A stretch of DNA of 64,000 bases from Escherichia coli (GTDB lineage: Bacteria; Pseudomonadota; Gammaproteobacteria; Enterobacterales; Enterobacteriaceae): assembly GCF_003790525.1 (NCBI RefSeq), contig NZ_CP033634.1. One strand, written 5' to 3'. The first letter of the stretch is position 1. The number at the start of each line of letters is the position of its first letter. The notes under the pieces are model-generated. The model saw nothing but the letters and a program-made list of their open reading frames with translations, did not search any database and was not told the origin of the DNA. Positions 31,435-56,814 of this stretch are shown here, one piece after another. The position numbers and the translations under genes were made by a program.

Positions 31435-32523
31435 CTATTCAGTTAGCATGAGCTTTGCTTTAAGAAACGTAAGTTTGATGTCATCAGTTTTGGTGAACTT
31501 GAACTTACCGTCAGTAGAAGCGTTAAACCTTTCAAAATAGTATTCAAGTAGCGGATCGTACCTGCCACCGTGAACCCAAGTGTAGAACTTACCAAGTTCA
31601 TAACGTAACTCTTTATCAAGTTCAGATCTTATTCTCAGCTCACTATCGTTTGCTAGTTCAACGATGTTCATTTCTTGAAGGTTCGTCTTAATCTCTTCAA
31701 TCAGAGGTAGGAGGGATTCTTTATACTTATCAGCCAATGGTACAAGGTCAGCGTCAGTTACTTCCGCTTCAAAAATCATAATCAGGTCGTCAATCTCCCC
31801 GTTATAGTAATCGTTATCTAATCGTTTTTCTGACTCAGTACGAAGAACATAGAGTTGTTCTAAAGGATCTAATTTAGTCTCAATTTTTTCTTTTGAAAGT
31901 TTGTGTTGATACTCAACAAACAGCGTTTCAATCCTATCAGCAATAACATCAAGATACTCATATCGAATTCTGAGAAATTCCAACAGCTCATTGATATTGA
32001 GGTTTAACGTTAGGTCTTCTTTACCCACATCTCGACTGTACAAATGAACACTCAAATCGCCAGTGTTGAAATGACTTTGAAATGGCCAACTTGCGAAACG
32101 CTTTGAGTTTTCTTGATTCAGATTTACGGGGTGAGCACCGAAACACGCCCTGATAGTTTTAAAATAATTATTATCATCTTCATTAGCGAAGAGGCGATCT
32201 TTGAAACATTTCTTTTCACCATAAAACGGATCTTTCTTATCAGTTATAAACACTCGATGGAGTTGTTTTATTGACTCGAAAATAAGGTCTATTGAAGAGA
32301 TCAGAGAGTAGACCTGCATACATCTACTATCTATGTTCTTGTCAAACTCAGGCGCATTTTCTAAGTGGCGAACAGAGACAGAGATCCAATCCATAGCAGA
32401 GCAAACGAGGTTAAAAAGATTCTTACCACCTTTATCTTTGTATATTTGATACACAAAGCTAGAGTTTGAGTTAACTAAGTCTCGAAAATCACTGATTTTA
32501 TCGTCACTAACAACGTTTCTCAT
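31435..32523 (-). CDS. Hypothetical 362-aa protein, candidate abortive-infection effector (Rx5H HEPN-like motif)
   Basis: Long clean ORF in a low-GC segment; RACFGAH fits the Rx4-6H HEPN pattern; no other family recognised. Confidence 0.6.
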   Translation of the reverse strand: MRNVVSDDKISDFRDLVNSNSSFVYQIYKDKGGKNLFNLVCSAMDWISVSVRHLENAPEFDKNIDSRCMQVYSLISSIDLIFESIKQLHRVFITDKKDPFYGEKKCFKDRLFANEDDNNYFKTIRACFGAHPVNLNQENSKRFASWPFQSHFNTGDLSVHLYSRDVGKEDLTLNLNINELLEFLRIRYEYLDVIADRIETLFVEYQHKLSKEKIETKLDPLEQLYVLRTESEKRLDNDYYNGEIDDLIMIFEAEVTDADLVPLADKYKESLLPLIEEIKTNLQEMNIVELANDSELRIRSELDKELRYELGKFYTWVHGGRYDPLLEYYFERFNASTDGKFKFTKTDDIKLTFLKAKLMLTE

Positions 32524-32958
32524 TCTCTAATCGCCTTCTAACCAATTGAAAATATTATGAAGAATGGCAAAAATGATAGTGATAGTTCTTCAATTCTTCA
32601 ACTTCTTTTTTGATTTGAAGTGAAGTGATACGCTGGGTTTTGTCACTTAGTTAGATTTGAACGATGAGGATCTCTAGCCAGTTGTATTGCTAGGCATTAT
32701 CCGAAGACAAATAGAAGAACTGAACCTCGAAGTAACTTTTATCCTAGGACGTGCTGAAGCTGGTCTCCGCAAACTTGTGATCTAGGCCAACACGCCTTTG
32801 CCCCCAAAACATTTAAAGCTATCCCTCATCACACCTTGCTAACTCGTTACTTGCCCGAATTTTTGTAATGAGCCAATATGCTATTAGTTGGTTATCCACT
32901 TAATTGTTTTATCAATTTATTTGATGACAATTTACACCATGTGTTCAAGGTATTGATT

Positions 32959-34059
32959 ATGGAATTACAGACAAGGCTAGTTTTTATCGATACAAGCGCT
33001 TTTGAAAAGAAAAACTATCAATTTGGGCAACACGCTCTTGGTCGTCTTCAAGAACTAATTGAGGATGAGAAAATCCACTTGCTCATTACTGATGTGACAA
33101 GGAAAGAGATCGACTCCCATCTCAAACACAAATCTGAAGAAGCAGCTTCTATGATAAAGAAGATGCAAAGAGATGCGATGTTCCTAAGAAACACCCCCGA
33201 CCTTGATTGTCATGGCATCTTCACCAAGATTAAAGGTGATGATATTTATGCTGTTATCAGTGAAAAATTTGATGATTTCGTCGAAAACGGCTACGTCGAA
33301 ACAATTGATGTAAGCACTGTTAACCCTCAAGTTGTATTTGATGCTTACTTCAACAACCTTCCTCCTTTTGGCAAAGAATCAAAAAAGCACGAGTTTCCTG
33401 ATGCATTTGCGCTAGAAGCTATTAAACAGGTGAGCTTGGCTAGAGGATATTCAGCCTATATCGTTAGTGACGACGGCGATATGAAATCATTCTGTGAGAA
33501 AGAAGATAACTTCATTCATCTTGAAAATGTCGATGACCTAATTGACTTGATTGTTCGAAGCGACAAAGCGTACGAAGAACCAGCCAAATTTGCTGATGAA
33601 ATATTCGAACAACTCCTAGAACAAATCAAAGCGGATGCCCTGCAAGCTCTCGAAGATGGCGAGTTCAACTATGAAAACGCAGATCCTTTCGATGAGACTA
33701 TCAATTCTATAGAAATCAACTCGGTGAATGTTGGGAAGAAAAACTTACAGAATGTCGATGCCGAGTGGGCTGAATACGAAGTAGAATTTGAGGTGGTTGT
33801 TACGGCAGATTATCGATTCTCAGATTATGACCGTTCACCTTGGGACCCTGAAGACAAGCAATATGTATTCGTCTTGAGTAATGAGTCAACAGTAAAACAC
33901 AAAGAAACATACACTGCCCACATAACACTTGCCTATACCGATGGATTAAAAGCTAACGCATACATTGAAGAGTTTTACTTCCAAGATACATATTTTGAGC
34001 TGACTGATAATGACTCCGAAGTCATTAGCTTCAAAGAACTAGATATCAACGGTGAATGA
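32959..34059 (+). CDS. PIN-like domain protein (resembles DUF4935-type PIN-like nucleases); alternative upstream start at 32878
   Basis: N-terminal LVFIDTSAF...LLITDVTRKEI...EFPDAFALEAI...YIVSDDGDM pattern of acidic residues on a PIN-like scaffold; stop lies 2 nt before the next gene. Confidence 0.6.
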   Translation: MELQTRLVFIDTSAFEKKNYQFGQHALGRLQELIEDEKIHLLITDVTRKEIDSHLKHKSEEAASMIKKMQRDAMFLRNTPDLDCHGIFTKIKGDDIYAVISEKFDDFVENGYVETIDVSTVNPQVVFDAYFNNLPPFGKESKKHEFPDAFALEAIKQVSLARGYSAYIVSDDGDMKSFCEKEDNFIHLENVDDLIDLIVRSDKAYEEPAKFADEIFEQLLEQIKADALQALEDGEFNYENADPFDETINSIEINSVNVGKKNLQNVDAEWAEYEVEFEVVVTADYRFSDYDRSPWDPEDKQYVFVLSNESTVKHKETYTAHITLAYTDGLKANAYIEEFYFQDTYFELTDNDSEVISFKELDINGE

Positions 34060-34060
34060 C

Positions 34061-34529
34061 ATGAAGCTATATGTAATAGGTAATGGCTTTGATGTTCATC
34101 ATGGCCTTGACACTAGGTATACATCTTTTGGGCTTTATCTCAAAAATAACTACTGGGAAACTTATGAACTATTGCTCGACTATTACGGGTTTGCTGACTT
34201 AGACCCAGATTTTCCAACAACAATGTCAGACCCTTTATGGTCTGAATTTGAAACGAGTATGTCACTGCTTGATAAAGATTCAGTTTTGGAAGCAAACATG
34301 GATGCAATGCCAAACTATTCTTCAGATGACTTTCGAGACAGAGACCGATACACGCTTGAAATTGAGATGGAGCGAATACTTGGCCTTCTAACCACTGAAC
34401 TGTATAAAGCATTCAAAGAGTTCATTTTGGCTGTACAGTTTCCTCAGTTTGATCACAGCCGATCAGTAAACATTGATAGAGACGCTGTTTACCTCACATT
34501 CAACTACACAGATACGCTTTCTCAATACT
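34061..34529 (+). pseudogene. AbiH-like abortive infection gene, truncated at codon 156 by IS2
   Basis: N-terminus MKLYVIGNGFDVHHGLDTRYTSF matches the recalled AbiH N-terminal signature; the frame runs into the IS2 left end at 34530. Confidence 0.6.
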
Positions 34530-34620
34530 TAGACTGGCTCCCTGAATCTCCAGACAACCAGTATCACTTAAATAAGTGATAGTCTTAATACTAGTTTTTA
34601 GACTAGTCATTGGAGAACAG

Positions 34621-34986
34621 ATGATTGATGTCTTAGGGCCGGAGAAACGCAGACGGCGTACCACACAGGAAAAGATCGCAATTGTTCAGCAGAGCTTTGA
34701 ACCGGGGATGACGGTCTCCCTCGTTGCCCGGCAACATGGTGTAGCAGCCAGCCAGTTATTTCTCTGGCGTAAGCAATACCAGGAAGGAAGTCTTACTGCT
34801 GTCGCCGCCGGAGAACAGGTTGTTCCTGCCTCTGAACTTGCTGCCGCCATGAAGCAGATTAAAGAACTCCAGCGCCTGCTCGGCAAGAAAACGATGGAAA
34901 ATGAACTCCTCAAAGAAGCCGTTGAATATGGACGGGCAAAAAAGTGGATAGCGCACGCGCCCTTATTGCCCGGGGATGGGGAGTAA
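34621..34986 (+). CDS. insC: IS2 OrfA (InsC)
   Basis: [56 protein letters not shown]... Confidence 0.92.
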
Positions 34987-35849
34987 GCTTAGTCAGCCGT
35001 TGTCTCCGGGTGTCGCGTGCGCAGTTGCACGTCATTCTCAGACGAACCGATGACTGGATGGATGGCCGCCGCAGTCGTCACACTGATGATACGGATGTGC
35101 TTCTCCGTATACACCATGTTATCGGAGAGCTGCCCACGTATGGTTATCGTCGGGTATGGGCGCTGCTTCGCAGACAGGCAGAACTTGATGGTATGCCTGC
35201 GATCAATGCCAAACGTGTTTACCGGATCATGCGCCAGAATGCGCTGTTGCTTGAGCGAAAACCTGCTGTACCGCCATCGAAACGGGCACATACAGGCAGA
35301 GTGGCCGTGAAAGAAAGCAATCAGCGATGGTGCTCTGACGGGTTCGAGTTCTGCTGTGATAACGGAGAGAGACTGCGTGTCACGTTCGCGCTGGACTGCT
35401 GTGATCGTGAGGCACTGCACTGGGCGGTCACTACCGGCGGCTTCAACAGTGAAACAGTACAGGACGTCATGCCAGGAGCGGTGGAACGCCGCTTCGGCAA
35501 CGATCTTCCGTCGTCTCCAGTGGAGTGGCTGACGGATAATGGTTCATGCTACCGGGCTAATGAAACACGCCAGTTCGCCCGGATGTTGGGACTTGAACCG
35601 AAGAACACGGCGGTGCGGAGTCCGGAGAGTAACGGAATAGCAGAGAGCTTCGTGAAAACGATAAAGCGTGACTACATCAGTATCATGCCCAAACCAGACG
35701 GGTTAACGGCAGCAAAGAACCTTGCAGAGGCGTTCGAGCATTATAACGAATGGCATCCGCATAGTGCGCTGGGTTATCGCTCGCCACGGGAATATCTGCG
35801 GCAGCGGGCTTGTAATGGGTTAAGTGATAACAGATGTCTGGAAATATAG
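34944..35849 (+). CDS. insD: IS2 OrfB (InsD) transposase catalytic part (expressed as OrfAB frameshift fusion)
   Basis: DDE integrase-like ORF overlapping orfA in the -1 frame. Confidence 0.92.
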
Positions 35850-35957
35850 GGGCAAATCCAGTGATATCCAATTCATTCAGTCTGTAAACACAATAGTGGA
35901 CATTCTCACATTGTCAAACGTGTATAGTTAGAGAGTGGAAGTAAAAGTGTATGGGTG

Positions 35958-36056
35958 GTTATTGCTGAGTACGATGACCGGTTCGTTGCGAAGGTCCGGG
36001 CGGAAAACTTTTTCACATGAGGCGTAGAAACTGTTGATATCAGCCAGTGCAAACAT
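35958..36056 (-). pseudogene. impB: impB 5' portion (first 33 codons)
   Basis: MFALADINSFYASCEKVFRPDLRNEPVIVLSNN matches the recalled UmuC N-terminus; the ATG overlaps the impA stop. Confidence 0.75.
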
Positions 36057-36493
36057 CAGCGTAACTCCCGCGTCCTGTGTATCACGTGAGTGACAACACC
36101 AAAAATACAGATGTTTTCCGGATACAGTGTGCGGAACTCCGGGCTGTCTGAAACCGGCTCCAGTGCCGGGCGTGGGCGCAACAGCAGTCGTTTGACGGTG
36201 AACTCACCATCGATCTCAGCGATAACGATGTCCCCGTGTTGTGGTTTTTCGGCCCTGTCCACTACCAGCAGATCACCATTCTGCACGCCAGCCTGGTTCA
36301 TCGATTCACCGCTGGCGCGCAGAAAGAAGGTGGCTGCAGGTCTGCTGATGCAATAGCTGTTCAGATCCAGTTCCTGCTCAGCATAATCAGTGGCAGGCGA
36401 AGGAAAACCGGCCAGGCAACGATCGGCAAACAACGGTCGCACGTAACTGTCATTGCCTGAAGGGTCAGCCGGACGGTGATAAACGGTACTCAT
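36056..36493 (-). CDS. impA: ImpA (UmuD-like, LexA-type S24 peptidase fold)
   Basis: 145-aa product aligns with recalled UmuD (FPSPATDYAEQELDLN...GESMNQAGVQNGDLLVVD...GDIVIAEIDGEFTVKRL). Confidence 0.88.
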   Translation of the reverse strand: MSTVYHRPADPSGNDSYVRPLFADRCLAGFPSPATDYAEQELDLNSYCISRPAATFFLRASGESMNQAGVQNGDLLVVDRAEKPQHGDIVIAEIDGEFTVKRLLLRPRPALEPVSDSPEFRTLYPENICIFGVVTHVIHRTRELR

Positions 36494-36738
36494 GCTGCAG
36501 GCAGCCAGCTGTCGTCCTGCCAGATTTCTTCCAGCAGAGACAGGATACGTTCTTTATCCTTGTCGTTGCGGGCTCCTGTGACAGATACAGACGGGGCGCT
36601 GCCCTGGTCTATACGCAGCCAGATTTCCGGGTAGTGTGGTTTCAGACGTCGTTCGATTTCATTCTGTAGCGCCTGAAGTGTGCCTGATTTGAGGTTTTTT
36701 GTGCTCTGGCGGTCGAAAAGAATTTCAATGCGGATCAT
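36490..36738 (-). CDS. impC: ImpC, small first gene of the impCAB operon
   Basis: 82-aa ORF from ATG 36738 with GGAG upstream; stop overlaps the impA start; sits between the LexA box and impA. Confidence 0.7.
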   Translation of the reverse strand: MIRIEILFDRQSTKNLKSGTLQALQNEIERRLKPHYPEIWLRIDQGSAPSVSVTGARNDKDKERILSLLEEIWQDDSWLPAA

Positions 36739-36761
36739 GTTCTCATCTCCCTTTTCTTTTG

Positions 36762-36777
36762 CTGTATGTATATACAG
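36762..36777 (-). promoter_or_regulatory. LexA (SOS) box CTGTATGTATATACAG upstream of impC
   Basis: Perfect CTGT-N8-ACAG palindrome 24 bp upstream of the impC start. Confidence 0.7.
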
Positions 36778-37378
36778 TATTCTAATAACTGAATCCACAC
36801 ACAGTCAAATGTCATTATTGTGACTAAAAAACGCTCAATTCTCTGAGGGTGTGGCTGTATGCCTGCTGTGGACTGCTGTGTCCAGCTTATCCACAGCATT
36901 TTGCGCACGGTTCTGTGAATAAAATACCTGGTTACCCAGGCCGTGCCGGCACGTTAACCGGGCTGCATCCAATGCAAGTGTGTCGCTGTCGCCGGCATCC
37001 TCACCAGGTCACTCAGCAGTCAGGGAGAAAAATGGCGGATGAAGTATGACGGAGACGGTCGGGCAAGTGCCCGTTTCTTTTCCGACAAAGGATGTCGCCG
37101 TGCTCCTCTTTTTACTGCGCCGGCTGACGCGGCGCGGCATAAACGCTGCCTGTGGTCAGTGTCCCGCGTCCGGCGGGCACGGGACGGGCGCTTTTACCGC
37201 TCCCGGCTGGCACCGGTGACAGTGTACGCCAGCCCGTCGCCCTTTTCTGATGAACGCCCTTCAAGCCGCTTTCGCGAATGAAAGGGACATCTTATTCGGT
37301 CTTTACGCTGGAGAGTTACTTTGGAAGACTGCGTCAACACGATGATAAGCGTACAAAGCCATTGTTAAGGGATCCTCT

Positions 37379-38395
37379 ATGACTGTTGTTACTGTCGGTA
37401 TTGATTTAGCTAAAAATGTGTTCGCTGTGCATGGCGTTAATGCTGCAGGAAAAGCTGTTTTAGTTAAGCCTCTTGTGCGTCGGGCTAAATTGCTTGAATT
37501 GATTGCAACACTTCCAGCATGTCTGATTGGAATTGAAGCATGTACAGGTGCACATTACTGGGCAAGAGAGTTCCAGAAAATGGGGCATACAGTTCGAATT
37601 ATGGCGCCGCAACTGGTTTCTCCATACCGTATGGGTGGCCGTCATGGGAAAAATGATGCTGCAGATGCCGCTGCCATTTGTGAAGCTGTTACCCGTCCTA
37701 ATATGCGGTTTGTTCCCATAAAATCAGTTGAGCAGCAAGGGCAGTTATTTGTACACAGAGCTCATCAGGGATATGTCAGTGAGAGAACAGCATTGATTAA
37801 TCGCATCCGGGGATTGCTCAGTGAGTTAGGTATTGTTCTCCCGCAGGCGTTTAAAGCGTTTTTATCCGGGGTGGCTCAGGTCCTTGAGGATTTGCCCGGT
37901 TACTGTAATCAGGTTATTGGTGATCTTCTTAATGAGCTTTATCACATAGAAGAAAAGATTAAAAACAGTGAAAAACTCATTCAGCAACTTGCCAGAGATA
38001 ACTCAGCAGCACAACTACTAATGCAATTCAGGGGGATAGGCCCGATGACTGCAACAGCAATCGTTGCCAGCATAGGTAATGGTCATGATTTCAAGAACGG
38101 ACGTCAGTTTAGTGCCTGGCTGGGGCTAACACCAAGACAACAAAGTTCCGGGGGGAAAGCACGGTTAGGGAGAATAACTAAAGCCGGCGACAGCTATCTC
38201 AGAACACTTCTTGTTTTGGGGGCGAGATCTGTATTGTTGGGAGCAGCTAAAAATGATGATCCGGTCAGTCGATGGGCCCTGCAGTTAAAAGAAAGGCGAG
38301 GATATGGACGAGCGCTTGTTGCGATAGCAGCAAAAAATGCACGTATGTGCTGGGCAATGTTGCACCTGAGAGATGAATTCAGATTTCCTGCCTAG
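37379..38395 (+). CDS. IS110-family transposase/recombinase
   Basis: 338 aa; N-terminal RuvC-like segment (VGIDLAKNVFAVHG...IGIEACTGAHYW), NDAADAAAICEA motif and C-terminal GIGPMTATAIVASIGNGHDF segment; element ends not determined. Confidence 0.85.
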   Translation: MTVVTVGIDLAKNVFAVHGVNAAGKAVLVKPLVRRAKLLELIATLPACLIGIEACTGAHYWAREFQKMGHTVRIMAPQLVSPYRMGGRHGKNDAADAAAICEAVTRPNMRFVPIKSVEQQGQLFVHRAHQGYVSERTALINRIRGLLSELGIVLPQAFKAFLSGVAQVLEDLPGYCNQVIGDLLNELYHIEEKIKNSEKLIQQLARDNSAAQLLMQFRGIGPMTATAIVASIGNGHDFKNGRQFSAWLGLTPRQQSSGGKARLGRITKAGDSYLRTLLVLGARSVLLGAAKNDDPVSRWALQLKERRGYGRALVAIAAKNARMCWAMLHLRDEFRFPA

Positions 38396-39091
38396 TCTAC
38401 TGATTATTAATGAGTTTATGAAATTGATTTCTTTCCTTGCATGACGACTGCACGATGATGATTTAAAAGGTTTGGACCTGCGCCATGGTTTACTCGAGAT
38501 ATGCAAGAGGCTGCCATGTTTATGTGGATATCTGTTTCGCGGATGGAGTCTATGGCGTGCGTCTTTCGTCAGGGTTCGTTGCTAACAACAGCACGTTAAT
38601 AACCGTTTATAGGCTCGCTGTCCGTAACCTTTTACTCTGACTGTGCAAGTTGTGTGCAGAAATCAATCTCATGATAGATAAAAGAATTATTCCACTGTTG
38701 CACCTGGAGTGTTCGGTGCTCGCTTTGCTGCGCTCCGCCTCAATCCAGTTGCAACAGCGTTTAATTAAAAGCATTAAGGCTTGTGTCATTGCGTACTTGA
38801 GCTATGCAGGAGATTTTTATTGGTTCTCTGTTTCGCGGATGAAGTCTCTGACATGAGCCTTTCTCTCATAAAAATCGTTCTATTTCATATTGATATATTA
38901 ATTTCATCATCATCGTTGACTCTGCAACAGATGTCCTTATAGGCATAGCCTTGCCGTCAAAAAGACGACGGCTGCGGTATTCCACGGTCGGCCTGACCCG
39001 TTACCGGACGCGGTGAACAGCCCACAGGCAGCGGGGAACGGGCACCACAGGGGTGCCCTCCCGGTGCCTTCTGTAAGAGAAGGAGGCTTTT

Positions 39092-45824: not shown

Positions 45825-46006
45825 TGACACAGGGCTGGCGGGAGGATAAATGCCCGTCTGTCCGCGCCGGGAAAAGACCGCGCGCCGGTGGCGCTGAAAG
45901 GGGCCGCGCTCACGCGCCGCCCCTTTCATTACGCGGACGTTCTGATGGGGGCTTCTGTCTTTTCAGACCTGTCATTTGTCTGTTACTGATGATGTTGTTG
46001 TTCCTG

Positions 46007-46040
46007 CTACTGCTACTGCTACTGCTACTGCTACTGCTCT
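46007..46040 (+). repeat. Hexanucleotide tandem repeat (CTACTG)n immediately upstream of Frpo copy 2
   Basis: ctgctactgctactgctactgctactgctactgctc read directly; absent at the equivalent position of copies 1 and 3. Confidence 0.85.
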
Positions 46041-46051
46041 TCTTTTTCCTG

Positions 46052-46675
46052 CTGCTCTGATTCTGACTACTGCAGTGTTGTTCTGTCTGCCGGGCGCACC
46101 TTCGGCTCCCGGCTGCCTGGCGGCATCCGGTCGTCAGGCCCGACTCCGACAGGCAGCTGCTGGCGCACCTGCCAGTCTCCGCCGAACCCGCTGGCGCGGT
46201 TTCGGGCTGCCGCTACGGTCCGATGCGTGAAAACCCGGCTTGCAGCGACCGTTCCGGTCGCGCCGCCCCTGTCGCGCCGTGACCTGCGCTCCAGGCATCC
46301 CGGCAAAAAGACGCCGGGATGTAAGGCGCAACGCCGTTTCGCAAACCGCGCTTCACGTCGTTGCGGCGGGTCCCTGCCCGTTGTTGTGTCCGGTGCCATT
46401 CACCTGTTTAAGCCCCTGTCGCCGGGGGCTGATACAGCCACAACCTGCCGCACTGACTGTCCAGGGTAAATGAACAGCCCACAAAATTTTTTACCCAAAA
46501 CCCGGTAAAAAATTTTGCGTTCTGCCCAGGACAGGTGCGTCAGGCCGTGGCAGTGATGCCCCATGCGGCGAAGGTTCTCAAACAGGTGATGGTGAATACC
46601 GGAGGGAACAAAGAGCAGGTCCCCGCAAAACGTCAAAACCGCGGCTCCCGAAACTCAACAGATGATGGGGGCTGA
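46052..46675 (+). repeat. Frpo/ssi-like leading-region repeat, copy 2
   Basis: Near-identical to copy 1; lies directly upstream of ssb. Confidence 0.6.
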
Positions 46676-46700
46676 AAACATCAACAGAAGGAGACACATC

Positions 46701-47228
46701 ATGGCAGTTCGTGGCATTAACAAGGTCATTCTTGTCGGTCGTCTGGGAAAAGATCCGGAAGTCCGTTACATCCCAAACGGGGGCGCAGTGGCAAACCTGC
46801 AGGTGGCCACGTCAGAAAGCTGGCGCGACAAACAGACGGGGGAGATACGGGAGCAGACAGAATGGCATCGCGTGGTGCTGTTCGGCAAGCTCGCGGAAGT
46901 GGCTGGTGAGTATCTGCGCAAGGGCGCGCAGGTCTACATCGAAGGTCAGCTTCGCACCCGTAGCTGGGAGGATAACGGTATCACCCGTTACGTCACCGAA
47001 ATTCTTGTTAAGACCACGGGCACCATGCAGATGCTGGGACGTGCCGCAGGTACTCAGACTCAGCCGGAAGAGGCGCAACAGTTCAGCGGTCAGCCTCAGC
47101 CGGAATCACAGCCGGAACCGAAAAAAGGAGGCGCGAAAACGAAAGGCCGTGGACGTAAGGCCGCGCAGCCGGAGCCTCAGCAGCCGTCTGAACCCGCGTA
47201 TGACTTCGATGACGACATTCCGTTCTAA
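46701..47228 (+). CDS. ssb: Plasmid single-stranded DNA-binding protein
   Basis: [48 protein letters not shown]... OB-fold SSB with acidic DFDDDIPF tail; AAGGAG before the ATG. Confidence 0.92.
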
Positions 47229-47241
47229 CGAAAGACAGTGA

Positions 47242-47517
<276 letters not shown>

Positions 47518-47580
47518 GAGAGGTGCCGGACGGGAACGCGTCCGGCAGACATACAACCATCCCGGTCAAAGGAGAAATAT

Positions 47581-49539
47581 ATGTCAGTTACAGAGTCTAA
47601 GACAAAAACGGAGCGTAAATCCAGCCGTAAACCTGCAAAAACGCAGGAAACTGTCCTGTCTGCCCTGCTGGCGCAGACGGAGGAAGTGAGCGTGCCGCTG
47701 GCCTCGCTGATTAAATCACCGCTGAATGTGCGCACGGTGCCGTATTCTGCGGAGTCCGTCAGCGAACTGGCGGAGTCCATTAAGGGCGTCGGACTGCTGC
47801 AGAATCTGGTCGTGCATACCCTGCCAGGTGACCGTTACGGTGTCGCCGCAGGTGGTCGCCGACTGGCAGCACTCAACATGCTGGCAGAGCGTGGAATCAT
47901 TCCGGCTGACTGGCCTGTCCGCGTGAAAATTATTCCGCAGGAACTGGCGACGGCTGCATCGATGACCGAGAACGGTCATCGTCGGGATATGCACCCTGCC
48001 GAACAGATTGCCGGATTCCGCGCAATGGCGCAGGAAGGCAAAACACCTGCACAAATCGGTGATTTGCTGGGCTATTCACCCCGCCACGTTCAGCGAATGC
48101 TGAAACTGGCAGACCTTGCGCCTGTCATTCTCGATGCGCTGGCAGAGGACCGCATCACCACAGAGCACTGTCAGGCGCTGGCGCTGGAGAACGACACCGC
48201 GCGTCAGGTGCAGGTGTTTGAAGCCGCCTGTCAGTCAGGATGGGGCGGTAAACCGGAAGTGCAGACCATTCGTCGTCTGGTGACCGAAAGTGAAGTGGCG
48301 GTGGCGGGGAACAGTAAATTCCGCTTCGTGGGGGCTGATGCCTTCTCGCCAGATGAACTGCGCACCGATTTGTTCAGCGACGACGAGGGTGGCTATGTGG
48401 ACTGCGTGGCGCTCGATGCCGCCCTGCTGGAAAAACTCCAGGCTGTTGCTGAACACCTTCGGGAAGCCGAAGGCTGGGAATGGTGCGCCGGACGTATGGA
48501 GCCTGTCGGTTTCTGCCGTGAGGATGCCGGAACATACCGCAGTCTGCCGGAGCCGGAAGCGGTGCTGACGGAGGCGGAAGAAGAACGCCTGAACGAACTG
48601 ATGGCACGTTACGACGCGCTGGAAAATCAGTGTGAGGAATCCGACCTGCTGGAAGCAGAAATGAAGCTGATTGACTGCATGGCGAAGGTCAGGGCGTGGA
48701 CGCCGGAGATGCGTGCCGGAAGTGGCTTGGTGGTATCCTGGCGTTATGGAAACGTATGTGTCCAGCGTGGTGTGCAGTTGCGCAGTGAGGATGACGTGGC
48801 TGACGACGCTGGCCGCACGGAACAGGTGCAGGAGAAAGCCTCCGTGGAGGGAATCAGTCTGCCGCTGCTGACGAAAATGTCTTCCGAACGCACGCTGGCA
48901 GTCCAGGCGGCACTCATGCAGCAACCGGACAAATCCCTGGCACTGCTGGCATGGACGCTCTGCCTGAATGTGTTTGGCAGCGGAGCGTACAGTAAACCAG
49001 CACAAATCAGCCTGGAATGTGAACATTATTCGCTGACCAGCGATGCGCCATCGGGGAAGGAAGGTGCCGCATTCATGGCGCTGATGGCAGAAAAAGCCCG
49101 TCTTGCTGCCCTGTTGCCGGAGGGATGGGCACGGGACATGACGACGTTCCTGTCACTCAGTCAGGAGGTGCTGTTATCCCTGCTCAGTTTCTGCACCGCA
49201 TGCAGCCTTAACGGTGTCCAGACCCGTGAGTGTGGTCACACGTCACGCAGTCCGCTTGACTCGCTGGAAACCGCTATCGGATTCCACATGCGCGACTGGT
49301 GGCAGCCGACAAAAGCAAACTTCTTCGGACACCTGAAAAAGCCGCAGATTATCGCAGCCCTGAATGATGCCGGACTGTCCGGTGCCGCACGGGACGCGGA
49401 GAAGATGAAGAAAGGCGATGCGGCTGAACATGCAGAGTTCCACATGAAAGACAACCGCTGGGTGCCTGGCTGGATGTGTGCACCACGTCCACAGACGGAT
49501 GCCACTGAACGCACCGCTAACCTGGCTGATGCCGCCTGA
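47581..49539 (+). CDS. ParB-like nuclease-domain protein of the leading region
   Basis: 652 aa; N-terminal ParB/Srx-like motif (GLLQNLVVHTLPGDRYGVAAGGRRLAA). Confidence 0.8.
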   Translation: MSVTESKTKTERKSSRKPAKTQETVLSALLAQTEEVSVPLASLIKSPLNVRTVPYSAESVSELAESIKGVGLLQNLVVHTLPGDRYGVAAGGRRLAALNMLAERGIIPADWPVRVKIIPQELATAASMTENGHRRDMHPAEQIAGFRAMAQEGKTPAQIGDLLGYSPRHVQRMLKLADLAPVILDALAEDRITTEHCQALALENDTARQVQVFEAACQSGWGGKPEVQTIRRLVTESEVAVAGNSKFRFVGADAFSPDELRTDLFSDDEGGYVDCVALDAALLEKLQAVAEHLREAEGWEWCAGRMEPVGFCREDAGTYRSLPEPEAVLTEAEEERLNELMARYDALENQCEESDLLEAEMKLIDCMAKVRAWTPEMRAGSGLVVSWRYGNVCVQRGVQLRSEDDVADDAGRTEQVQEKASVEGISLPLLTKMSSERTLAVQAALMQQPDKSLALLAWTLCLNVFGSGAYSKPAQISLECEHYSLTSDAPSGKEGAAFMALMAEKARLAALLPEGWARDMTTFLSLSQEVLLSLLSFCTACSLNGVQTRECGHTSRSPLDSLETAIGFHMRDWWQPTKANFFGHLKKPQIIAALNDAGLSGAARDAEKMKKGDAAEHAEFHMKDNRWVPGWMCAPRPQTDATERTANLADAA

Positions 49540-49590
49540 TGAACAACCACACCGCCCCGCCGGAGACGGGGCGGCAGAGGGAGAAATACG

Positions 49591-50028
49591 ATGATGAATA
49601 CCGAACTGACACTGAATGCCCTGCAGTCCATGAATGCCCAGGAATATGAAGAAATCCGTGCTGCGGGAAGCGATATGCGCCGTAATCTCACTCACGAGGT
49701 GATGCGTGAAGTGGACGCACCGGCTAACTGGATGATGAATGGCGAGTATGGCAGCGAGTTCGGGGGCTTTTTCCCCGTCCAGGTTCGTTTCACGCCAGCC
49801 CACGAACGTTTCCACCTGGCATTATGTTCGCCGGGAGACGTCTCTCAGCTCTGGGTGCTGGTTCTGGTGAATGCCGGTGGTGAGCCGTTTGCGGTGGTTC
49901 AGGTGCAGCGGCGGTTTGCACCGGAAGCTGTCAGCCATTCACTGGCACTGGCGGCGTCACTGGATGCGCAGGGGTACAGCGTTAACGACATCATTCATAT
50001 CCTGATGGCGGAAGGAGGTCAGGCATGA
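49591..50028 (+). CDS. psiB: PsiB plasmid SOS-inhibition protein (alternative start 49594)
   Basis: ...[26 protein letters not shown]...[33 protein letters not shown]... near-identical to recalled F PsiB. Confidence 0.92.
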
Positions 50029-50744
50029 GCGCACGTTCACAGGCACTGGTTCCTCTCAGCACAGAGCAACAGGCCGCATGGCGGGCGGTGGCGGAGACCG
50101 AAAAACGCCGCCATCAGGGTAACACGCTGGCTGAATATCCGTATGCGGGGGCGTTTTTCCGCTGTCTGAACGGAAGCCGCAGGATTTCGCTGTCTGACCT
50201 GCGATTTTTCATGCCATCCCTGACCGCAGAAGAACTGCACGGCAGCCGTCTTCAGTGGCTGTATGCCATCGATGTGCTGATTGAAACACAGGGCGAGGTC
50301 TGCCTCCTTCCCCTTCCCGGTGATGCAGCAGAGCGCTTGTTCCCGTCGGTGCGGTTTCGTGTCAGGGAACGCAGTCGCCATAAATCCGCGCTGGTCATGC
50401 AGAAGTACAGCCGCCAGCAGGCGAGGGAGGCAGAGCAGAAAGCCCGTGCGTACCAGGCGCTGGTCGCTCAGGCTGAAATCGAACTGGCATTCCATTCGCC
50501 GGAAACAGTCGGAAGCTGGCATGCACGCTGGAGTGACCGGGTGGCAGAGCATGACCTGGAAACCCTGTTCTGGCAGTGGGGCGAGCGTTTTCCGTCACTG
50601 GCCGGAATGGAACGCTGGCAGTGGCAGGATATGCCGTTCTGGCAGGTTATTGCGGAAGCCAGTCTTGCAGCAAGAGAGGCCGGTCACGCTGTCCGTGAGA
50701 TGGAGCGGTGGATGGTGCCGAACAAACTCCGGGAGGCAGCGTGA
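50025..50744 (+). CDS. psiA: PsiA
   Basis: 239-aa product downstream of and overlapping psiB, as in F. Confidence 0.9.
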
Positions 50745-50924
50745 TGCGGCAACAATCACACGGATTTCCCGTGAACGGTCTGAATGAGCGGATTATTTTC
50801 AGGGAAAGTGAGTGTGGTCAGCGTGCAGGTATATGGGCTATGATGTGCCCGGCGCTTGAGGCTTTCTGCCTCATGACGTGAAGGTGGTTTGTTGCCGTGT
50901 TGTGTGGCAGAAAGAAGATAGCCC

Positions 50925-51000
50925 CGTAGTAAGTTAATTTTCATTAACCACCACGAGGCATCCCTATGTCTAGTCCACATCAGGATAGCCTCTTACCGCG
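50925..51000 (-). ncRNA. sok: Putative Sok antisense RNA (approximate)
   Basis: Position inferred from the hok/sok paradigm (antisense across the mok start region). Confidence 0.35.
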
Positions 51001-51178
51001 CTTTGCGCAAGGAGAAGAAGGCCATGAAACTACCACGAAGTTCCCTTGTCTGGTGTGTGTTGATCGTGTGTCTCACACTGTTGATATTCACTTATCTGAC
51101 ACGAAAATCGCTGTGCGAGATTCGTTACAGAGACGGACACAGGGAGGTGGCGGCTTTCATGGCTTACGAATCCGGTAA
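50966..51178 (+). CDS. mok: Mok-like overlapping reading frame of the hok/sok locus
   Basis: 70-codon frame overlapping hok in the +2 register, as described for R1 hok/sok. Confidence 0.55.
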
Positions 51179-51182
51179 GTAG
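51024..51182 (+). CDS. hok: Hok host-killing toxin (type I toxin-antitoxin; flmA-like)
   Basis: [52 protein letters not shown], 52 aa, matching recalled Hok. Confidence 0.9.
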
Positions 51183-51453
51183 CAACCTGGAGGCGGGCGC
51201 AGGCCCGCCTTTTCAGGACTGATGCTGGTCTGACTACTGAAGCGCCTTTATAAAGGGGCTGCTGGTTCGCCGGTAGCCCCTTTCTCCTTGCTGATGTTGT
51301 ACGGGCATGAACAACCTGACTTCAGGAAGGTCGTTTCCCTTCAGGAACGGGGATGAACGCGCGCCTGCGGCGCCCGTTCTTTTCCCCCGCCTTCTCTGGT
51401 TACGGCCTGTCAGAAATCACATCACCTTCCCTGTGATTATTCTCTTTTTCTTC

Positions 51454-52010
51454 CTGCTCTGATTCTGACTACTGCAGTGTTGTCCTGTCTGCTGGCGCAC
51501 CTGCCAGTCTCCGCCGAACCCGCTGGCGCGGTTTCGGGCTGTCGCTACGGTCCGATGCGTGAAAACCCCGGGCTTGCAGCGACCGTTCCGGTCGCGCCGC
51601 CTCTGTCGCGCCGTGGCCTGCGCTCCTGGCATCCCGGCAAAAAGACGCCGGGATGTAAGGCGCAACGCCGTTTCGCAAACCGCGCTTCACGTCGTTGCTG
51701 CGGGTCCCTGCCCGTTGTTGTGTCCGGTGCCATTCACCTGTTTAAGCCCCTGTCGCCGGGGGCTGATACAGCCACAACCTGCCGCACTGACTGTCCAGGG
51801 TAAATGAACAGCCCACAAAATTTTTTACCCAAAACCCGGTAAAAAATTTTGCGTTCTGCCCAGGACAGGTGCGTCAGGCCGTGGCAGTGATGCCCCTTGC
51901 GGCGAAGGTTCTCAAACAGGTGATGGTGAATACCGGAGGGAACAAAGAGCAGGTCCCCGCAAAACGTCAAAACCGCGGCTCCCGAAACTCAACAGATGAT
52001 GGGGGCTGAA
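51454..52010 (+). repeat. Frpo/ssi-like leading-region repeat, copy 3 (about 70-bp internal deletion relative to copies 1 and 2)
   Basis: Same start (ctgctctgattctgactactgcagtgttg) and end (cgtcaaaaccgcggctcccgaaactcaac) as the other copies. Confidence 0.6.
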
Positions 52011-52438
52011 AACCAGAGAGAGGAGAAAGCTGGATGAGTACCCGAAATATCCACGTTAACACCGCGTCGTACACGATTCTTGTTGCCGGGAGGGAAAAAA
52101 CACCGGGGAAGAGTGGGACGTCCTGGAATTCAGCAGCCTGACTGAGCTGAAAAAATATCGCAAAAGCCACCCGGAAAAGATGGCCTTCAGCTATAGCTAC
52201 GCGCTCAGCCGGGGTGTGGATACGCAGTTCCGCCATATCAACATTGCGGAAGCCGATCACTTCAAACAGTTCCTGCGTCAGATTAAGCGTGCCGGCCTCG
52301 ATATCCGGGCGATCTGCTGACCGGATGTGATGAATATCCCTCCTGATTGTTGCAATCTTGTTAATGGAGATCGGGAGAGATGATATTAAGCGGAAAAATT
52401 TTTTATTAAATTTATTCTTTCATAAAGGAGTAGCTGTT

Positions 52439-53260
52439 ATGCGATTAGCTTCCCGTTTTGGTCGGTATAATTCCATCCGTCGTGAACGTCCTTTAACGGA
52501 TGATGAATTAATGCAGTTCGTGCCTTCGGTATTTTCCGGTGATAAACATGAGTCCCGGAGTGAACGTTATACGTATATTCCAACAATCAATATCATCAAT
52601 AAGTTACGTGATGAAGGTTTCCAGCCATTCTTTGCCTGTCAGAGTCGGGTTCGTGATTTGGGACGCCGCGAATACAGTAAACATATGTTACGTCTTCGCA
52701 GGGAAGGGCATATTAACGGGCAGGAAGTTCCTGAAATTATCCTGCTTAATTCACATGATGGTTCATCCAGTTATCAGATGATCCCCGGAATTTTTCGTTT
52801 TGTCTGCACAAATGGCCTGGTGTGCGGAAATAATTTTGGCGAAATCCGTGTTCCACATAAAGGTGATATTGTCGGGCAGGTTATCGAGGGAGCGTATGAA
52901 GTGCTCGGTGTCTTTGATAAGGTCACTGATAATATGGAGGCGATGAAAGAAATTCATCTTAACAGTGACGAGCAACATTTATTTGGCAGAGCTGCACTGA
53001 TGGTCAGGTATGAAGATGAAAATAAAACGCCAGTGACACCTGAACAGATAATTACTCCCCGTCGTCGGGAAGATAAACAGAACGATCTCTGGACAACCTG
53101 GCAGCGGGTTCAGGAGAATATGATAAAAGGTGGATTATCGGGGCGAAGTGCCTCCGGGAAAAATACCAGGACAAGAGCCATTACAGGTATTGATGGTGAT
53201 ATAAGAATCAACAAGGCGTTATGGGTGATTGCCGAACAGTTCAGAAAGTGGAAGTCATGA
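52439..53260 (+). CDS. DUF932-like leading-region protein
   Basis: 273 aa from the ATG at 52439 (AAGGAG upstream), MRLASRFGRYNSIRRERPLTDDELMQF...; the gene nearest oriT on the leading side. Confidence 0.7.
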   Translation: MRLASRFGRYNSIRRERPLTDDELMQFVPSVFSGDKHESRSERYTYIPTINIINKLRDEGFQPFFACQSRVRDLGRREYSKHMLRLRREGHINGQEVPEIILLNSHDGSSSYQMIPGIFRFVCTNGLVCGNNFGEIRVPHKGDIVGQVIEGAYEVLGVFDKVTDNMEAMKEIHLNSDEQHLFGRAALMVRYEDENKTPVTPEQIITPRRREDKQNDLWTTWQRVQENMIKGGLSGRSASGKNTRTRAITGIDGDIRINKALWVIAEQFRKWKS

Positions 53261-53556
53261 TAATATAAGTAAAGCCCCGAAAAAATTTTCGGGGCTTTAC
53301 TTATATTATCATTTTTCGGCATTGCTGTGTCGTCTGATATACCTCAATTTCATCGACCGGCTTTCCGGTTGTCTGTAAATATTGTGCCCGCGAAAAATGG
53401 TCTGGCAGGAGGCTGCGCAGTTACCGGGTATATATAAGATGGGTTCCCGCTTCGCGGGGCTTCGGCCAGTCAGTATTGTCACTCATATGATATTTTTGTG
53501 TGTGGCCTTCCATGCCGCTTTTGCGGCATAACCGGTATCTGACAATGTCTGTAAGA

Positions 53557-54066
53557 TTAATTGTTCTGCACGCTGTTAATTTCCGGAAGTGATTTCTTCG
53601 TGGCCGGAAGCCGGATACCTTTACTGCTTTTTATCCCGGTATAAATCCGGTAAACCTCTGATGCGTAGGCAAGACGTCTCTGGTTCTGGCGTTCGGATTT
53701 CCTGAATCCTGCATTGTATGCACCAACGGCCTCCCAGGTGACGCCCCATTTTTTAAATGCTATTGCCAGATAATAAGCACCGGTATAAATGTTCATGCAG
53801 GGATCTGTTGTCAGATGTTCTGGCTTAATTCCGTAGCGGGCCAGTTCGTTAAAATGCTGGGAATCTACCTGCATCAGTCCGCTGCCATATCCCGTTACCG
53901 GATTAATACCGATGGCATTAACCCGGTAACGGGATTCTTTCCATGATATTGCTCTCAGTAAATCAGGATCTATTTTGTAATCCCGGCCTGCAAGATCAAA
54001 GCAATCAGTGGCATGGCAGATCTCATTTATAAACATCAGGCAGATGGCTAACATCCATTTTTTCAT
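53557..54066 (-). CDS. Lytic transglycosylase (gene X / orf169-like)
   Basis: 169 aa from [10 protein letters not shown]...; signal peptide then lysozyme-like transglycosylase motifs ([24 protein letters not shown]). Confidence 0.85.
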
Positions 54067-54099
54067 TTTTCCACCTCTGGTGACTTTATCCGTAAATAA

Positions 54100-54470
54100 T
54101 TTAACCCACTCCACAAAAAGGCTCAACAGGTTGGTGGTTCTCACCACCAAAAGCACCACACACTACGCAAAAACAAGTTTTTGCTGATTTGCCACTTGAA
54201 TCATTAACTTATGTTTTAAATAATGTATTTTAATTTATTTTACATTATAAAAAGGATTCATTGGTGAATCGCATATGATTCACCAATGAATTTAACACAA
54301 CTCATAGATGAATCAGTAATAATAAAACAACGAGTTAAAGCGAATTGACTCTAGATTCAATTCGTGATGTGATTTGCTGCATGAATCGTAATTTTCGTAA
54401 CTTGCGTCACGATTCGATTCATCGATGAATTGTCATTTTTTTATATGTGAAATAAATTTGATGCGATAAG
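54100..54470. other. oriT region; nic predicted on the minus strand near 54157/54158
   Basis: Inverted repeat TTGGTGGTTCTCACCACCAA (54131-54150) followed by AAGCACCACACACTACGCAAAAAC, resembling the recalled F/R100 nic region; AT-rich tract with repeated motifs before traM. Confidence 0.7.
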
Positions 54471-54489
54471 AAAATAAAGAGGTATACAT

Positions 54490-54873
54490 ATGGCGAAAGT
54501 GCAGGCTTATGTCAGTGACGAAATTGTCTATAAAATAAATAAAATTGTGGAAAGAAGACGTGCAGAAGGAGCTAAAAGTACAGATGTAAGTTTCTCAAGC
54601 ATATCCACTATGCTTCTCGAATTAGGGCTTCGTGTATATGAGGCTCAGATGGAGCGTAAAGAGTCAGCGTTCAATCAGGCTGAGTTTAATAAGGTGCTTC
54701 TTGAATGTGCGGTAAAAACACAGTCAACAGTTGCTAAGATTTTAGGTATTGAGTCACTAAGCCCTCATGTTTCCGGGAATCCAAAGTTTGAATATGCGAA
54801 TATGGTCGAAGATATCAGGGAGAAGGTGTCATCTGAGATGGAGAGGTTCTTTCCAGAAAATGATGAGGATTAA
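54490..54873 (+). CDS. traM: TraM
   Basis: MAKVQAYVSDEIVYKINKIVERRRAEGAKSTDVSFSSISTMLLELGLRVYEAQ..., 127 aa. Confidence 0.9.
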   Translation: MAKVQAYVSDEIVYKINKIVERRRAEGAKSTDVSFSSISTMLLELGLRVYEAQMERKESAFNQAEFNKVLLECAVKTQSTVAKILGIESLSPHVSGNPKFEYANMVEDIREKVSSEMERFFPENDED

Positions 54874-54961
54874 AAAAGAATTAAAAGTTGATTTGCTTCA
54901 AATAACAGGATTTTGATCTGGTTCAATTTGATGACAATTAACCGCATAAAGGTTATATTAA

Positions 54962-55040
54962 TTACGTGGTTAATGCCACGTTAAAAATTGAAACTGAAAA
55001 TCGCCGATGCAGGGAGTTCAGACCTCCCTGCATCGACTGT
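54962..55040 (-). ncRNA. finP: Putative FinP antisense RNA against the traJ leader (approximate)
   Basis: Two hairpins in the traJ 5' UTR (CGTGG-TTAATG-CCACG at about 54965-54980; GATGCAGGGAG-TTCAGAC-CTCCCTGCATC at about 55005-55035); finO is present in the window. Confidence 0.45.
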
Positions 55041-55066
55041 CCATAGAATCCTTAACGGAGGTTCCT

Positions 55067-55753: not shown

Positions 55754-55846
55754 ATGTTAAATAAGGCACGCCAATTTTGGCGTGTTTTTTTTCGTCGGTT
55801 TCTGTGCAATCATGATTTTATTAGTCAGGAAACAGAGGTGAATTGA

Positions 55847-56074: not shown

Positions 56075-56107
56075 TTTTTATCTATCAATATTAAACAGAG
56101 GAATCAT

Positions 56108-56467: not shown

Positions 56468-56481
56468 CAGGAAATAAAACG

Positions 56482-56793: not shown

Positions 56794-56814
56794 AACTGAT
56801 ATCAGGATTGTTAT

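Follow-up and report, generated by a model that had tools for sequence, protein, structure and literature searches.

The locus examined here raises the question of what becomes of an SOS-regulated transcript once its operon has been split by a mobile element. The window, the whole stretch of 64,000 nucleotides of Escherichia coli DNA that was analyzed (contig NZ_CP033634.1), contains an impCAB operon, all features of which were read directly from the sequence on the minus strand, and the third gene of this operon is interrupted by an insert. An earlier note had claimed that SOS-induced transcripts would continue beyond the break into the insert, antisense to IS2 and to a pair of PIN and AbiH genes. 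The control region, the operon, the insert and the downstream RNA are considered in turn.

A promoter scan placed a sigma-70 promoter, TTGACT-18-TAGAAT (36808–36779, minus strand), at the top of 19 sites with 10 of 12 matches. Abutting it is a high-affinity LexA (SOS) box, TACTGTATATACATACAGCA (36779–36760, minus), recognized by a 20-mer scan and by its identity to the box of plasmid pTF2. The first base of this box is the last base of the -10 hexamer, and its CTGT-N8-ACAG core occupies 36777–36762 (minus). A second, weak LexA-like box, GACTGTGTGTGGATTCAGTT (36806–36787, minus), overlaps the -35 hexamer. In the impCAB operon of pTF2 (IncI1), the same 20-mer as that of the window has a heterology index of 1.60, and the weak second box, identical in sequence to the one found here, has an index of 13.49 (PMC12211044). 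Proteomics of a constitutive-SOS lexA mutant with pTF2 showed ImpC to be up 21-fold, ImpA 9-fold, and ImpB 2-fold (PMC12211044).

It could be objected that the box is a chance palindrome and that the imp operon is constitutive or silent, given that the bare CTGT-N8-ACAG motif is expected about once per window: one match was found against 0.93 expected, and 64 of 100 shuffled sequences gave at least one. Because of this chance expectation, the bare motif was rejected as stand-alone evidence, and the 20-mer test was used instead. With up to 3 mismatches to the LexA 20-mer consensus allowed, the window yielded a single match (2 mismatches), and no match of any kind was seen in 100 shuffles. The box also coincides exactly with the -10/+1 position of the top-ranked promoter, is identical to the experimentally supported box of pTF2, and has equivalents upstream of every umuD-like operon that hosts the SE-SenBL10 element described below (five different operons). 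A chance origin is effectively refuted by these observations and can be set aside with near certainty. The SOS box noted earlier upstream of impC-impA, in the gene order impC-impA-impB, is thus both real and strong. Because the sequence is identical to that of pTF2, LexA control of the operon is predicted on this plasmid as well: the operon would be kept off by LexA at the box abutting the -10 hexamer, and DNA damage would relieve repression to allow ImpC and ImpA to be made. Repression and its relief by SOS have been shown for the identical promoter elsewhere and would be expected here by analogy.

The first two genes of the operon are intact. Of these, impC (36738–36490, minus) encodes a DinI-like protein of 82 aa (Pfam DinI, 3.6e-18), the counterpart of which in plasmid pGZM7d is likewise annotated as DinI-like, and impA (36493–36056, minus) encodes a UmuD-like S24 autopeptidase of 145 aa (Pfam Peptidase_S24, 2.7e-23). 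Alignment of ImpA with E. coli UmuD (48% identity) showed retention of the Ala28-Gly29 cleavage site, Ser64, and Lys101. The third gene begins as a fragment, impB' (36056–35928, minus), which on translation consists of 33 authentic codons followed by nine codons (HPYTFTSTL) and a stop from the left end of the element, and which matches the Pfam IMS profile at positions 2–31 only. When aligned to an intact operon (L005), impB breaks off precisely behind codon 33, at 35958, and resumes at 31026. The 3' part, codons 34–423 (31020–29848, minus), is 99% identical to intact ImpB and contains no frameshift or stop. No contiguous 423-codon Y-family polymerase gene is therefore present, as 4,931 bp and a repeated hexamer lie between the two parts.

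The region thus covers the two-thirds nearest the promoter of a plasmid impCAB operon of the canonical, LexA-repressed type. The first 33 residues of UmuC include the catalytic Asp6 and the steric-gate Tyr11. Since residues 1–33 of ImpB are cut off from the remainder of the protein, error-prone polymerase function must be lost, as had been presumed in the earlier note, which also placed the interruption correctly at 33 codons with ImpA and ImpC remaining. With impB split at this point, only ImpC and ImpA can be made, and no ImpA'2-ImpB polymerase would be able to form.

Read in the direction of the operon, the 4,931-bp insert in impB is bounded by a target-derived attL hexamer, AATAAC (35963–35958, minus), which corresponds to the Asn32-Asn33 codons of impB. 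This is followed by a 97-bp left end (35957–35861, minus) with terminal motif C (CACCCATACACTTTTAC), which is 100% identical to nt 1–97 of the full SE-SenBL10 element. The left end carries a promoter-like site, TTGACA-16-TATTGT (35917–35890, minus; promoter scan), and in intact copies the ATG of intA lies 3 nt past the point at which these 97 bp end. Next comes a copy of IS2, a member of the IS3 family (34530–35860, plus), identified by its length of 1,331 bp, its ends, and its transposase annotation, with the transposase genes antisense to imp. IS2 cuts the abortive-infection gene AbiH, of which an N-terminal part remains (AbiH', 34061–34529, plus; Pfam AbiH profile positions 1–159 of 260); the full-length AbiH of L004 has 319 aa and matches both Pfam AbiH (1.6e-64) and PADLOC AbiH (1.1e-29). 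An intact gene for a PIN_12-domain protein (32959–34059, plus; Pfam PIN_12, 5.6e-36) is also antisense to imp, and its product gave no match in a PADLOC search. A cargo ORF of 362 aa (32523–31435, minus) lies in the same sense as imp and was without match in Pfam, NCBIfam, and PADLOC. It has 386 homologues, and those with an organism name are mostly from marine gammaproteobacteria; its AF2 model has a pLDDT of 90.6, and comparison with the PDB gave no informative neighbour. The insert closes with a right end (31046–31027, minus), the motif C' of which aligns as an imperfect inverted repeat of the left end (CACCCATACAC-TTTTAC versus CACCGTTACACGTTTTAC), in line with the motifs C and C' of 13–19 bp that characterize SE termini. 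Both ends of the element are kept in the window. The attR hexamer, AATAAC (31026–31021, minus), occupies the position of the donor footprint, and the last three bases of the right end, GTG, open an uninterrupted in-frame ORF of 393 aa ('ImpB). A scan of positions 28000–39000 against Rfam at E ≤ 0.1 returned no RNA family.

The identity of the insert follows from comparison with the intact element in plasmid p113k of S. Typhimurium BL10, which is 10,159 bp long with 38.2% GC. This copy corresponds to the SE-SenBL10 entry of Idola et al. 2023 by length, GC, Tfp (WP_099949651.1), and Srap (WP_099949652.1). SE-SenBL10 is listed there as a strand-biased circularizing integrative element (Mob DNA 14:7, Additional file 8), and no strand-biased circularization assay of SE-SenBL10 itself was found in the main text of that paper. 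In the window, IS2 is flanked by nt 1–97 and nt 6654–10156 of the element, and the right 3.5 kb of the insert is 99.9% identical to SE-SenBL10 over 3,503 bp. All four core genes, intA-tfp-intB-srap, are present in intact relatives (L008, L012, and L017–L019) and absent from the window. By BLASTP, the IntA, Tfp, and IntB proteins of an intact relative matched those of SE-6945 (6e-18, 9e-12, and 6e-15, respectively), and the match between the Srap proteins was not significant (E = 0.8). Tn7-like elements, group II introns, Tn554, RIT, and GInt were also considered for the insert, but SE is favoured by its published listing, by the order of the core genes, and by their similarity to those of SE-6945.

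impB was thus split by site-specific insertion of a catalogued tyrosine-recombinase transposon, SE-SenBL10, from which an IS2-associated deletion then took nt 98–6653, comprising intA, tfp, intB, srap, and the C-terminal part of AbiH. IS2 is flanked by ATACT on one side and GTGAT on the other, without a 5-bp target duplication, and therefore marks a 6.5-kb deletion of the element; a missing duplication is what either of two routes would leave, insertion of IS2 followed by a deletion next to it or recombination between two IS2 copies. Because the core genes were deleted next to IS2, the window holds a remnant and not a functional member of the family, a non-autonomous 4.9-kb wreck that cannot move by itself. 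The description of the insert as a single "defence cargo element" consequently has to give way to that of an IS2-truncated SE-SenBL10 lacking its four recombination genes, and, as AbiH is cut to profile positions 1–159 of 260, the supposed PIN/AbiH pair is broken.

What SOS transcripts leaving impA would encounter can be considered in this light. They would be translated through the 42-codon impB' fusion peptide and would then proceed as untranslated RNA antisense to IS2. No intrinsic-terminator-like site was found by scanning the minus strand from 36056 to 34245, and the region as a whole contained 7 terminator-like sites compared with 7.0 in shuffled sequences. A terminator immediately after impA had been named as the observation that would speak against read-through, and, because no intrinsic terminator follows impA, that objection falls away. 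Beyond the impB' stop (35928), ~3.4 kb of RNA goes untranslated; just downstream it is C-rich and G-poor (C/G 2.1 and 1.7 within the first 200 nt), and it is less structured than shuffled sequence (z = +1.5). Untranslated, C-rich, unstructured RNA provides the usual conditions for Rho termination. Rho termination inside IS2 is likely because the downstream RNA is of this kind, and in the absence of an intrinsic terminator most imp transcripts would be expected to be ended by Rho within IS2, although some could run further. A Rho stop within IS2 would in turn make it unlikely that the PIN gene or AbiH' is under SOS control. The earlier claim that transcripts continue into the insert therefore stands insofar as no hairpin-plus-U-tract terminator blocks them; continuation is only permitted, and the untranslated C-rich RNA favours Rho. 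The word "antisense" likewise holds over IS2, AbiH', and the PIN gene, which lie on the opposite strand as stated, but past the PIN gene the same RNA would be sense to the 362-aa ORF and the 3' part of impB.

The earlier model in full, in which SOS transcripts cross the whole insert and modulate the IS2 transposase and PIN/AbiH during DNA damage by antisense RNA or transcriptional interference, draws on the strong promoter and LexA box, on a minus strand free of intrinsic terminators from impA to 34245, and on the opposite orientation of IS2, AbiH', and the PIN gene. It is nevertheless improbable, given a 3.4-kb untranslated path that begins C-rich, G-poor, and poorly folded and so favours Rho, and given that AbiH is already truncated. 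Furthermore, the arrangement was found in one public plasmid record only, that of pGZM7d (1 of 17 junction-bearing plasmids), so nothing suggests that it has been selected for. An effect of imp read-through on the PIN gene or AbiH' is accordingly unsupported.

Still less credible, with only a slim chance of being correct, is productive read-through in the sense direction, whereby SOS transcripts would yield the product of the 362-aa ORF and, from the right-end GTG, an 'ImpB shortened at its N-terminus, paralleling the proposed rulB(2) of pWW0. Both the 362-aa ORF and the 393-aa 'ImpB ORF are oriented as imp, the latter is uninterrupted, and an analogous ORF has been noted in pWW0. These ORFs, however, lie 3.4–4.9 kb from the promoter, beyond antisense IS2 and PIN sequence, and the GTG has no clear Shine-Dalgarno sequence upstream. 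The product would also lack residues 1–31 of ImpB, and UmuC without these residues is missing its first catalytic Asp and its steric-gate Tyr. The reading preferred here, and held with good confidence, is that of an ordinary SOS impCAB operon with impB cut by SE-SenBL10, which was later gutted by IS2, and with read-through limited by Rho. Read-through into the wreck is possible and probably short-lived, and a role for it is undemonstrated.

The position of the insertion is not peculiar to this plasmid. The element is always found after codon 33 and in the orientation of the operon, whether in impB, in the E. coli chromosomal umuC, or in three divergent plasmid umuC homologues, and its target is the AAYAAY (Asn-Asn) hexamer, which lies within the SNND motif conserved among umuC-family genes. 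For SEs, attL has been described as carrying the hexamer of the target and attR that of the donor attL. Across the 12 complete copies, a count that leaves out the window and the near-identical pGZM7d, attL was the local allele in all 12, and attR differed from attL in 9. Both hexamers of the window are AATAAC, and it is therefore uninformative for this rule. Four of the five E. coli chromosomal copies combine attL AATAAT with attR AATAAC, and the attR of L003, AACAAC, is the attL of L014 in the same strain. Chromosomal umuC copies can thus be seen with the plasmid-type hexamer AATAAC, and one Shigella plasmid copy with the chromosomal-type AATAAT. Such reciprocal footprints suggest traffic of a non-conjugative element between chromosomes and conjugative plasmids. 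In E. coli strain 97.3, an IS5-deleted copy seems to have transferred from one plasmid to another.

It is conceivable, as a tentative proposal, that this choice of target is a strategy of promoter capture, in which same-orientation insertion 33 codons into the gene places the core genes under the LexA box, DNA damage triggers copy-out, and copies in plasmid leading regions are also triggered by the SOS pulse after conjugative entry, allowing a non-conjugative element to shuttle between plasmids and chromosomes. In intact copies, intA-tfp-intB-srap start 100 nt past the junction, 545–822 nt downstream of the LexA box, and intA could be read from the LexA-controlled promoter; this arrangement had a functional logic only as long as the element was intact. 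SOS-triggered copy-out would also explain the reciprocal 6-bp footprints. The IS2-gutted copy of the window keeps both ends and might still be mobilized in trans. That a LexA promoter might read into an insert in a umuC-like gene is not a new idea: for elements located in umuC/rulB genes, LexA-driven transcription into their integrases was suggested in 2011–2014, and it has been postulated for rulB-inserted elements (PMC4542609).

For the chicken-origin multiresistance F-type plasmid itself, the result is a dead error-prone polymerase operon that retains predicted SOS-inducible ImpC and ImpA, together with an immobilized, partly broken defence island in impB. The present value of the analysis lies in clarifying the annotation. 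More broadly, the umuC-family genes of plasmids and chromosomes serve as interchangeable landing pads for one SE transposon, with 6-bp footprints recording the traffic. If LexA read-through does drive SE recombinases, SOS-inducing antibiotics would promote the spread of SE cargo, which in related elements includes tmexCD-toprJ and mcr-9.

Among known systems, the operon is closest to impCAB of the IncI-complex plasmids (TP110 and pTF2, and pWR501 of Shigella), the plasmid analogue of umuDC plus dinI, with which it shares gene order, overlapping stop/start codons, promoter, and LexA box. The intact operon of the IncK2/Z plasmid pMRY16-002_3 is 98% identical to it. The window operon differs from these in its split impB and in its location on an F-type plasmid related to pGZM7d, to which the window is identical only at ~23.5–46 kb. 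Its surroundings differ from the usual ones as well, with ~1 kb of upstream backbone deleted and ISShdy1 nearby. The insert has the termini, target hexamer, and orientation of SE-SenBL10, with IS2 replacing nt 98–6653.

The experimentally characterized SE-6945 and SE-6283 of Vibrio alfacsensis pSEA1 (Nonaka et al. 2018, 2022) have the four-gene core order of the intact relative, and both they and the family of the window element show imperfect terminal inverted repeats and a 6-bp attL-to-attR footprint. Protein identity between SE-6945 and the intact relative is only ~21–24%, and the Vibrio elements target T-rich sites and bcp and carry blaGMA-1, whereas SE-SenBL10 targets the umuC-family SNND hexamer and carries AbiH, the PIN protein, and the 362-aa ORF. 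The integron-like elements (ILEs)/GInts that occupy rulB in Pseudomonas plasmids, pWW0 among them (Jackson 2011; Rhodes 2014; Bardaji 2017), likewise lie near the start of a umuC-family gene, at a GAT codon 123 bp into rulB, with an integrase gene ~60–120 nt downstream in the same orientation and, as here, a LexA box upstream of the operon. LexA control of that integrase via the rulAB promoter was proposed by the authors of those studies, who also noted an alternative downstream rulB(2) ORF. These elements differ from SEs in family, host range, and proteins, and published GInt and SE proteins cluster separately. The tmexCD-toprJ "int-int-hp-hp" elements (SE-PaeBT2436 family) are cargo-bearing and of SE type and have umuC as an integration hotspot, having been reported repeatedly in this gene on plasmids and SXT/R391 ICEs, but they differ from SE-SenBL10 in their termini and in carrying an efflux pump as cargo.

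LexA control of the imp operon is textbook knowledge, and here the promoter, the boxes, impC, impA and the start of impB all lie on the minus strand. The top of 19 scanned sigma-70 promoter-like sites was TTGACT-18-TAGAAT at 36808-36779 (10/12 matches), and the LexA 20-mer TACTGTATATACATACAGCA was located at 36779-36760, its core (36777-36762) being the interval previously called a perfect SOS box. The bare CTGT-N8-ACAG core is by itself within chance (one match in the window against 0.93 expected; at least one in 64 of 100 shuffles); the full LexA consensus, searched with up to three mismatches, gave a single match (two mismatches) and none in 100 shuffles. The identical 20-mer has been reported for impCAB of the IncI1 plasmid pTF2 (heterology index 1.60), along with a second, weak box (index 13.49) that corresponds to 36806-36787 here and overlaps the -35; for pTF2 in a constitutive-SOS lexA mutant, ImpC was up 21-fold, ImpA 9-fold and ImpB 2-fold (PMC12211044). 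Earlier papers on the operon (Lodwick 1990; Runyen-Janecky 1999) are drawn on through a citing paper. The SOS-boxed impC-impA-impB operon of the earlier note is confirmed. Upstream of the promoter, backbone homology reaches only 37012, with ~1 kb absent, including the usual DUF1281 gene, and a 1,665-bp block with ISShdy1 (IS110 family, 37379-38395) is inserted further upstream (region 37012-38941).

impC (36738-36490; Pfam DinI, 3.6e-18) and impA (36493-36056; Peptidase_S24, 2.7e-23) were both found, and in ImpA, which shares 48% identity with E. coli UmuD, the Ala-Gly cleavage site and Ser/Lys dyad are conserved. impB starts at 36056 and matches the IMS family at profile positions 2-31 only. 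Alignment to the intact operon of the IncK2/Z plasmid pMRY16-002_3 placed the break where it had been noted, after codon 33: homology ends at 35958 and picks up again at 31026, with the hexamer AATAAC flanking the insert on either side (attL = attR). The 5' fragment, impB', takes nine further codons from the element before stopping at 35928. The 3' part, 'impB (29848-31020, minus strand), is 99% identical to intact ImpB with no frameshift, and an in-frame GTG formed by the element's last three bases (31027-31029, minus strand) opens a 393-aa ORF (29848-31029) that resembles the rulB(2) ORF noted for pWW0 insertions. Its product would be without residues 1-31, the stretch in which UmuC has its first catalytic Asp and its steric-gate Tyr.

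The 4,931-bp insert is tripartite: nt 1-97 of an integrative element that circularizes with strand bias (an SE), IS2 (34530-35860; 1,331 bp) and nt 6654-10156 of the same element. No 5-bp target duplication flanks IS2, so element nt 98-6653, comprising the full set of four recombination genes plus the 3' part of abiH, were removed by deletion or inter-IS2 recombination. The intact larger element was found in IncI-gamma/K1 plasmids of S. dysenteriae and S. Typhimurium, a K. pneumoniae megaplasmid and E. coli chromosomes; a Moellerella plasmid has at least the left junction and intA, the locus reaching the end of the record. Where the element is intact, the ATG of intA is 3 nt past the point where IS2 now starts, and the core genes, with overlapping start and stop codons, encode a 509-aa tyrosine recombinase, a 616-aa protein, a 663-aa protein with recombinase motifs and a 146-aa protein, followed by AbiH and PIN_12 genes on the opposite strand and then a 362-aa ORF. 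Three of the core proteins, in order the first to the third, are significantly similar to those of SE-6945 from Vibrio plasmid pSEA1 (IntA, 6e-18; Tfp, 9e-12; IntB, 6e-15), and the fourth has no significant similarity to its SE-6945 counterpart. On S. Typhimurium BL10 plasmid p113k the copy measures 10,159 bp at 38.2% GC and corresponds exactly to the SE-SenBL10 entry of Idola et al. 2023 (Additional file 8), including the Tfp and Srap accessions, and the element ends form an imperfect inverted repeat, as expected of SEs. Within the 97-bp left end, a promoter-like TTGACA-16-TATTGT (35890-35917, minus strand; 10/12 matches) is presumably where the element itself initiates intA transcription, now directed into IS2 antisense.

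The 362-aa ORF (31435-32523, minus strand) gave a confident AF2 model (pLDDT 90.6), mostly helical with a small sheet. It had no Pfam, NCBIfam or PADLOC match, its PDB neighbours were uninformative, and those of its 386 homologues with an organism name were mostly from marine gammaproteobacteria; a defence or accessory gene that has so far gone unrecognised is a possibility. Distant relatives of the core genes carry other, defence-like cargo: a CBASS-like SAVED/Mov34/ThiF/nucleotidyltransferase cluster in a Citrobacter IncHI2A plasmid (L009, 5704-19795) and a DUF262 protein adjoining blaGMA-1 in a V. alfacsensis plasmid (L007, 3397-12573).

The element junction was present in 17 of the 2,332 plasmids carrying this imp segment, and 29 complete E. 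coli genomes had either the junction or the left end of the element, with many chromosomal copies inside umuC among them, as in strain NCTC86. Every copy examined lies after codon 33 in the orientation of the operon, with a canonical LexA box 545-822 nt upstream of attL. The left-end hexamer is always the local gene's Asn-Asn codons (AATAAC for impB, AATAAT for E. coli umuC and, among other homologues, AACAAC or AACAAT), and the right-end hexamer is often unlike it, a pattern that is the attL-fingerprint/attR-footprint rule described for SEs rather than simple target duplication. On the chromosomes of unrelated E. coli, SE-SenBL10 follows umuC codon 33 in NCTC86 (L018, 11507-21665) and in L011, L016, L017 and L019; all five have the native AATAAT at attL, and four have AATAAC at attR. 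The latter is the plasmid impB hexamer, which suggests plasmid-to-chromosome transposition; a Shigella plasmid copy has AATAAT at its right end. E. coli O68:H12 strain 97.3 has three copies: a chromosomal one with intact core genes (L016, 11507-22864) and identical 8,014-bp IS5-deleted copies without tfp and intB on two plasmids, in differing umuC-like targets (L003, 4045-12058; L014, 12126-20139). Since the right-end hexamer of L003, AACAAC, is the attL hexamer of L014, the defective copy seems to have moved, via trans-mobilisation or gene conversion; trans-complementation of intA and intB mutants, as published, failed.

The earlier note proposed that SOS-induced transcripts would continue into the insert, antisense to IS2 and the PIN/AbiH pair, and named in advance a terminator right after impA as a finding that would count against this. 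A scan of the minus strand from 36056 to 34245 found no hairpin plus U-tract terminator, terminator-like sites overall being at chance level, so that counter-finding was absent and read-through is permitted. Rho loads onto C-rich RNA that is neither translated nor structured, and it suppresses antisense transcription. RNA past the impB' stop would be untranslated for ~3.4 kb, up to the 362-aa ORF; over the first 200 nt of this stretch the C/G ratios are 2.1 and 1.7, C exceeds G over most of the IS2 antisense stretch, and folding at the junction is weaker than in shuffled sequence (z = +1.5). For these reasons we infer that Rho probably terminates most read-through within IS2. Of the pair, AbiH is truncated as it stands, and PIN is 1.9-3 kb away from the junction; past PIN, any transcript would run in the sense direction of the 362-aa ORF and 'impB.

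The interpretation in the earlier note thus has partial support. The genes that would gain from read-through are deleted in the window, and the IS2-gutted configuration looks like decay rather than design. Plasmid pGZM7d was the only public record found to share it; pGZM7d and the window are identical only over ~23.5-46 kb (1-23500 and 46000-64000 are not collinear), with an 8-bp register shift opening at ~28.2 kb and closing at ~29.8 kb around a ParA-like gene. SOS- or conjugation-triggered SE copy-out by promoter capture, with plasmid-chromosome shuttling recorded in the footprints, is plausible, if rather doubtful, and is partly anticipated in the literature. The main text of Idola et al. 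2023 leaves umuC, SOS and defence unmentioned, SE-SenBL10 appearing in the supplementary table only. The operon and insert are already known in kind and in parts: umuC is a recognised hotspot of SE-type "int-int-hp-hp" elements bearing tmexCD-toprJ, and for rulB-inserted integron-like elements the LexA-regulated promoter of the umuC-like operon has been proposed to control the integrase just inside the polymerase gene (Jackson 2011; Rhodes 2014), so the concept of the earlier note is not new.
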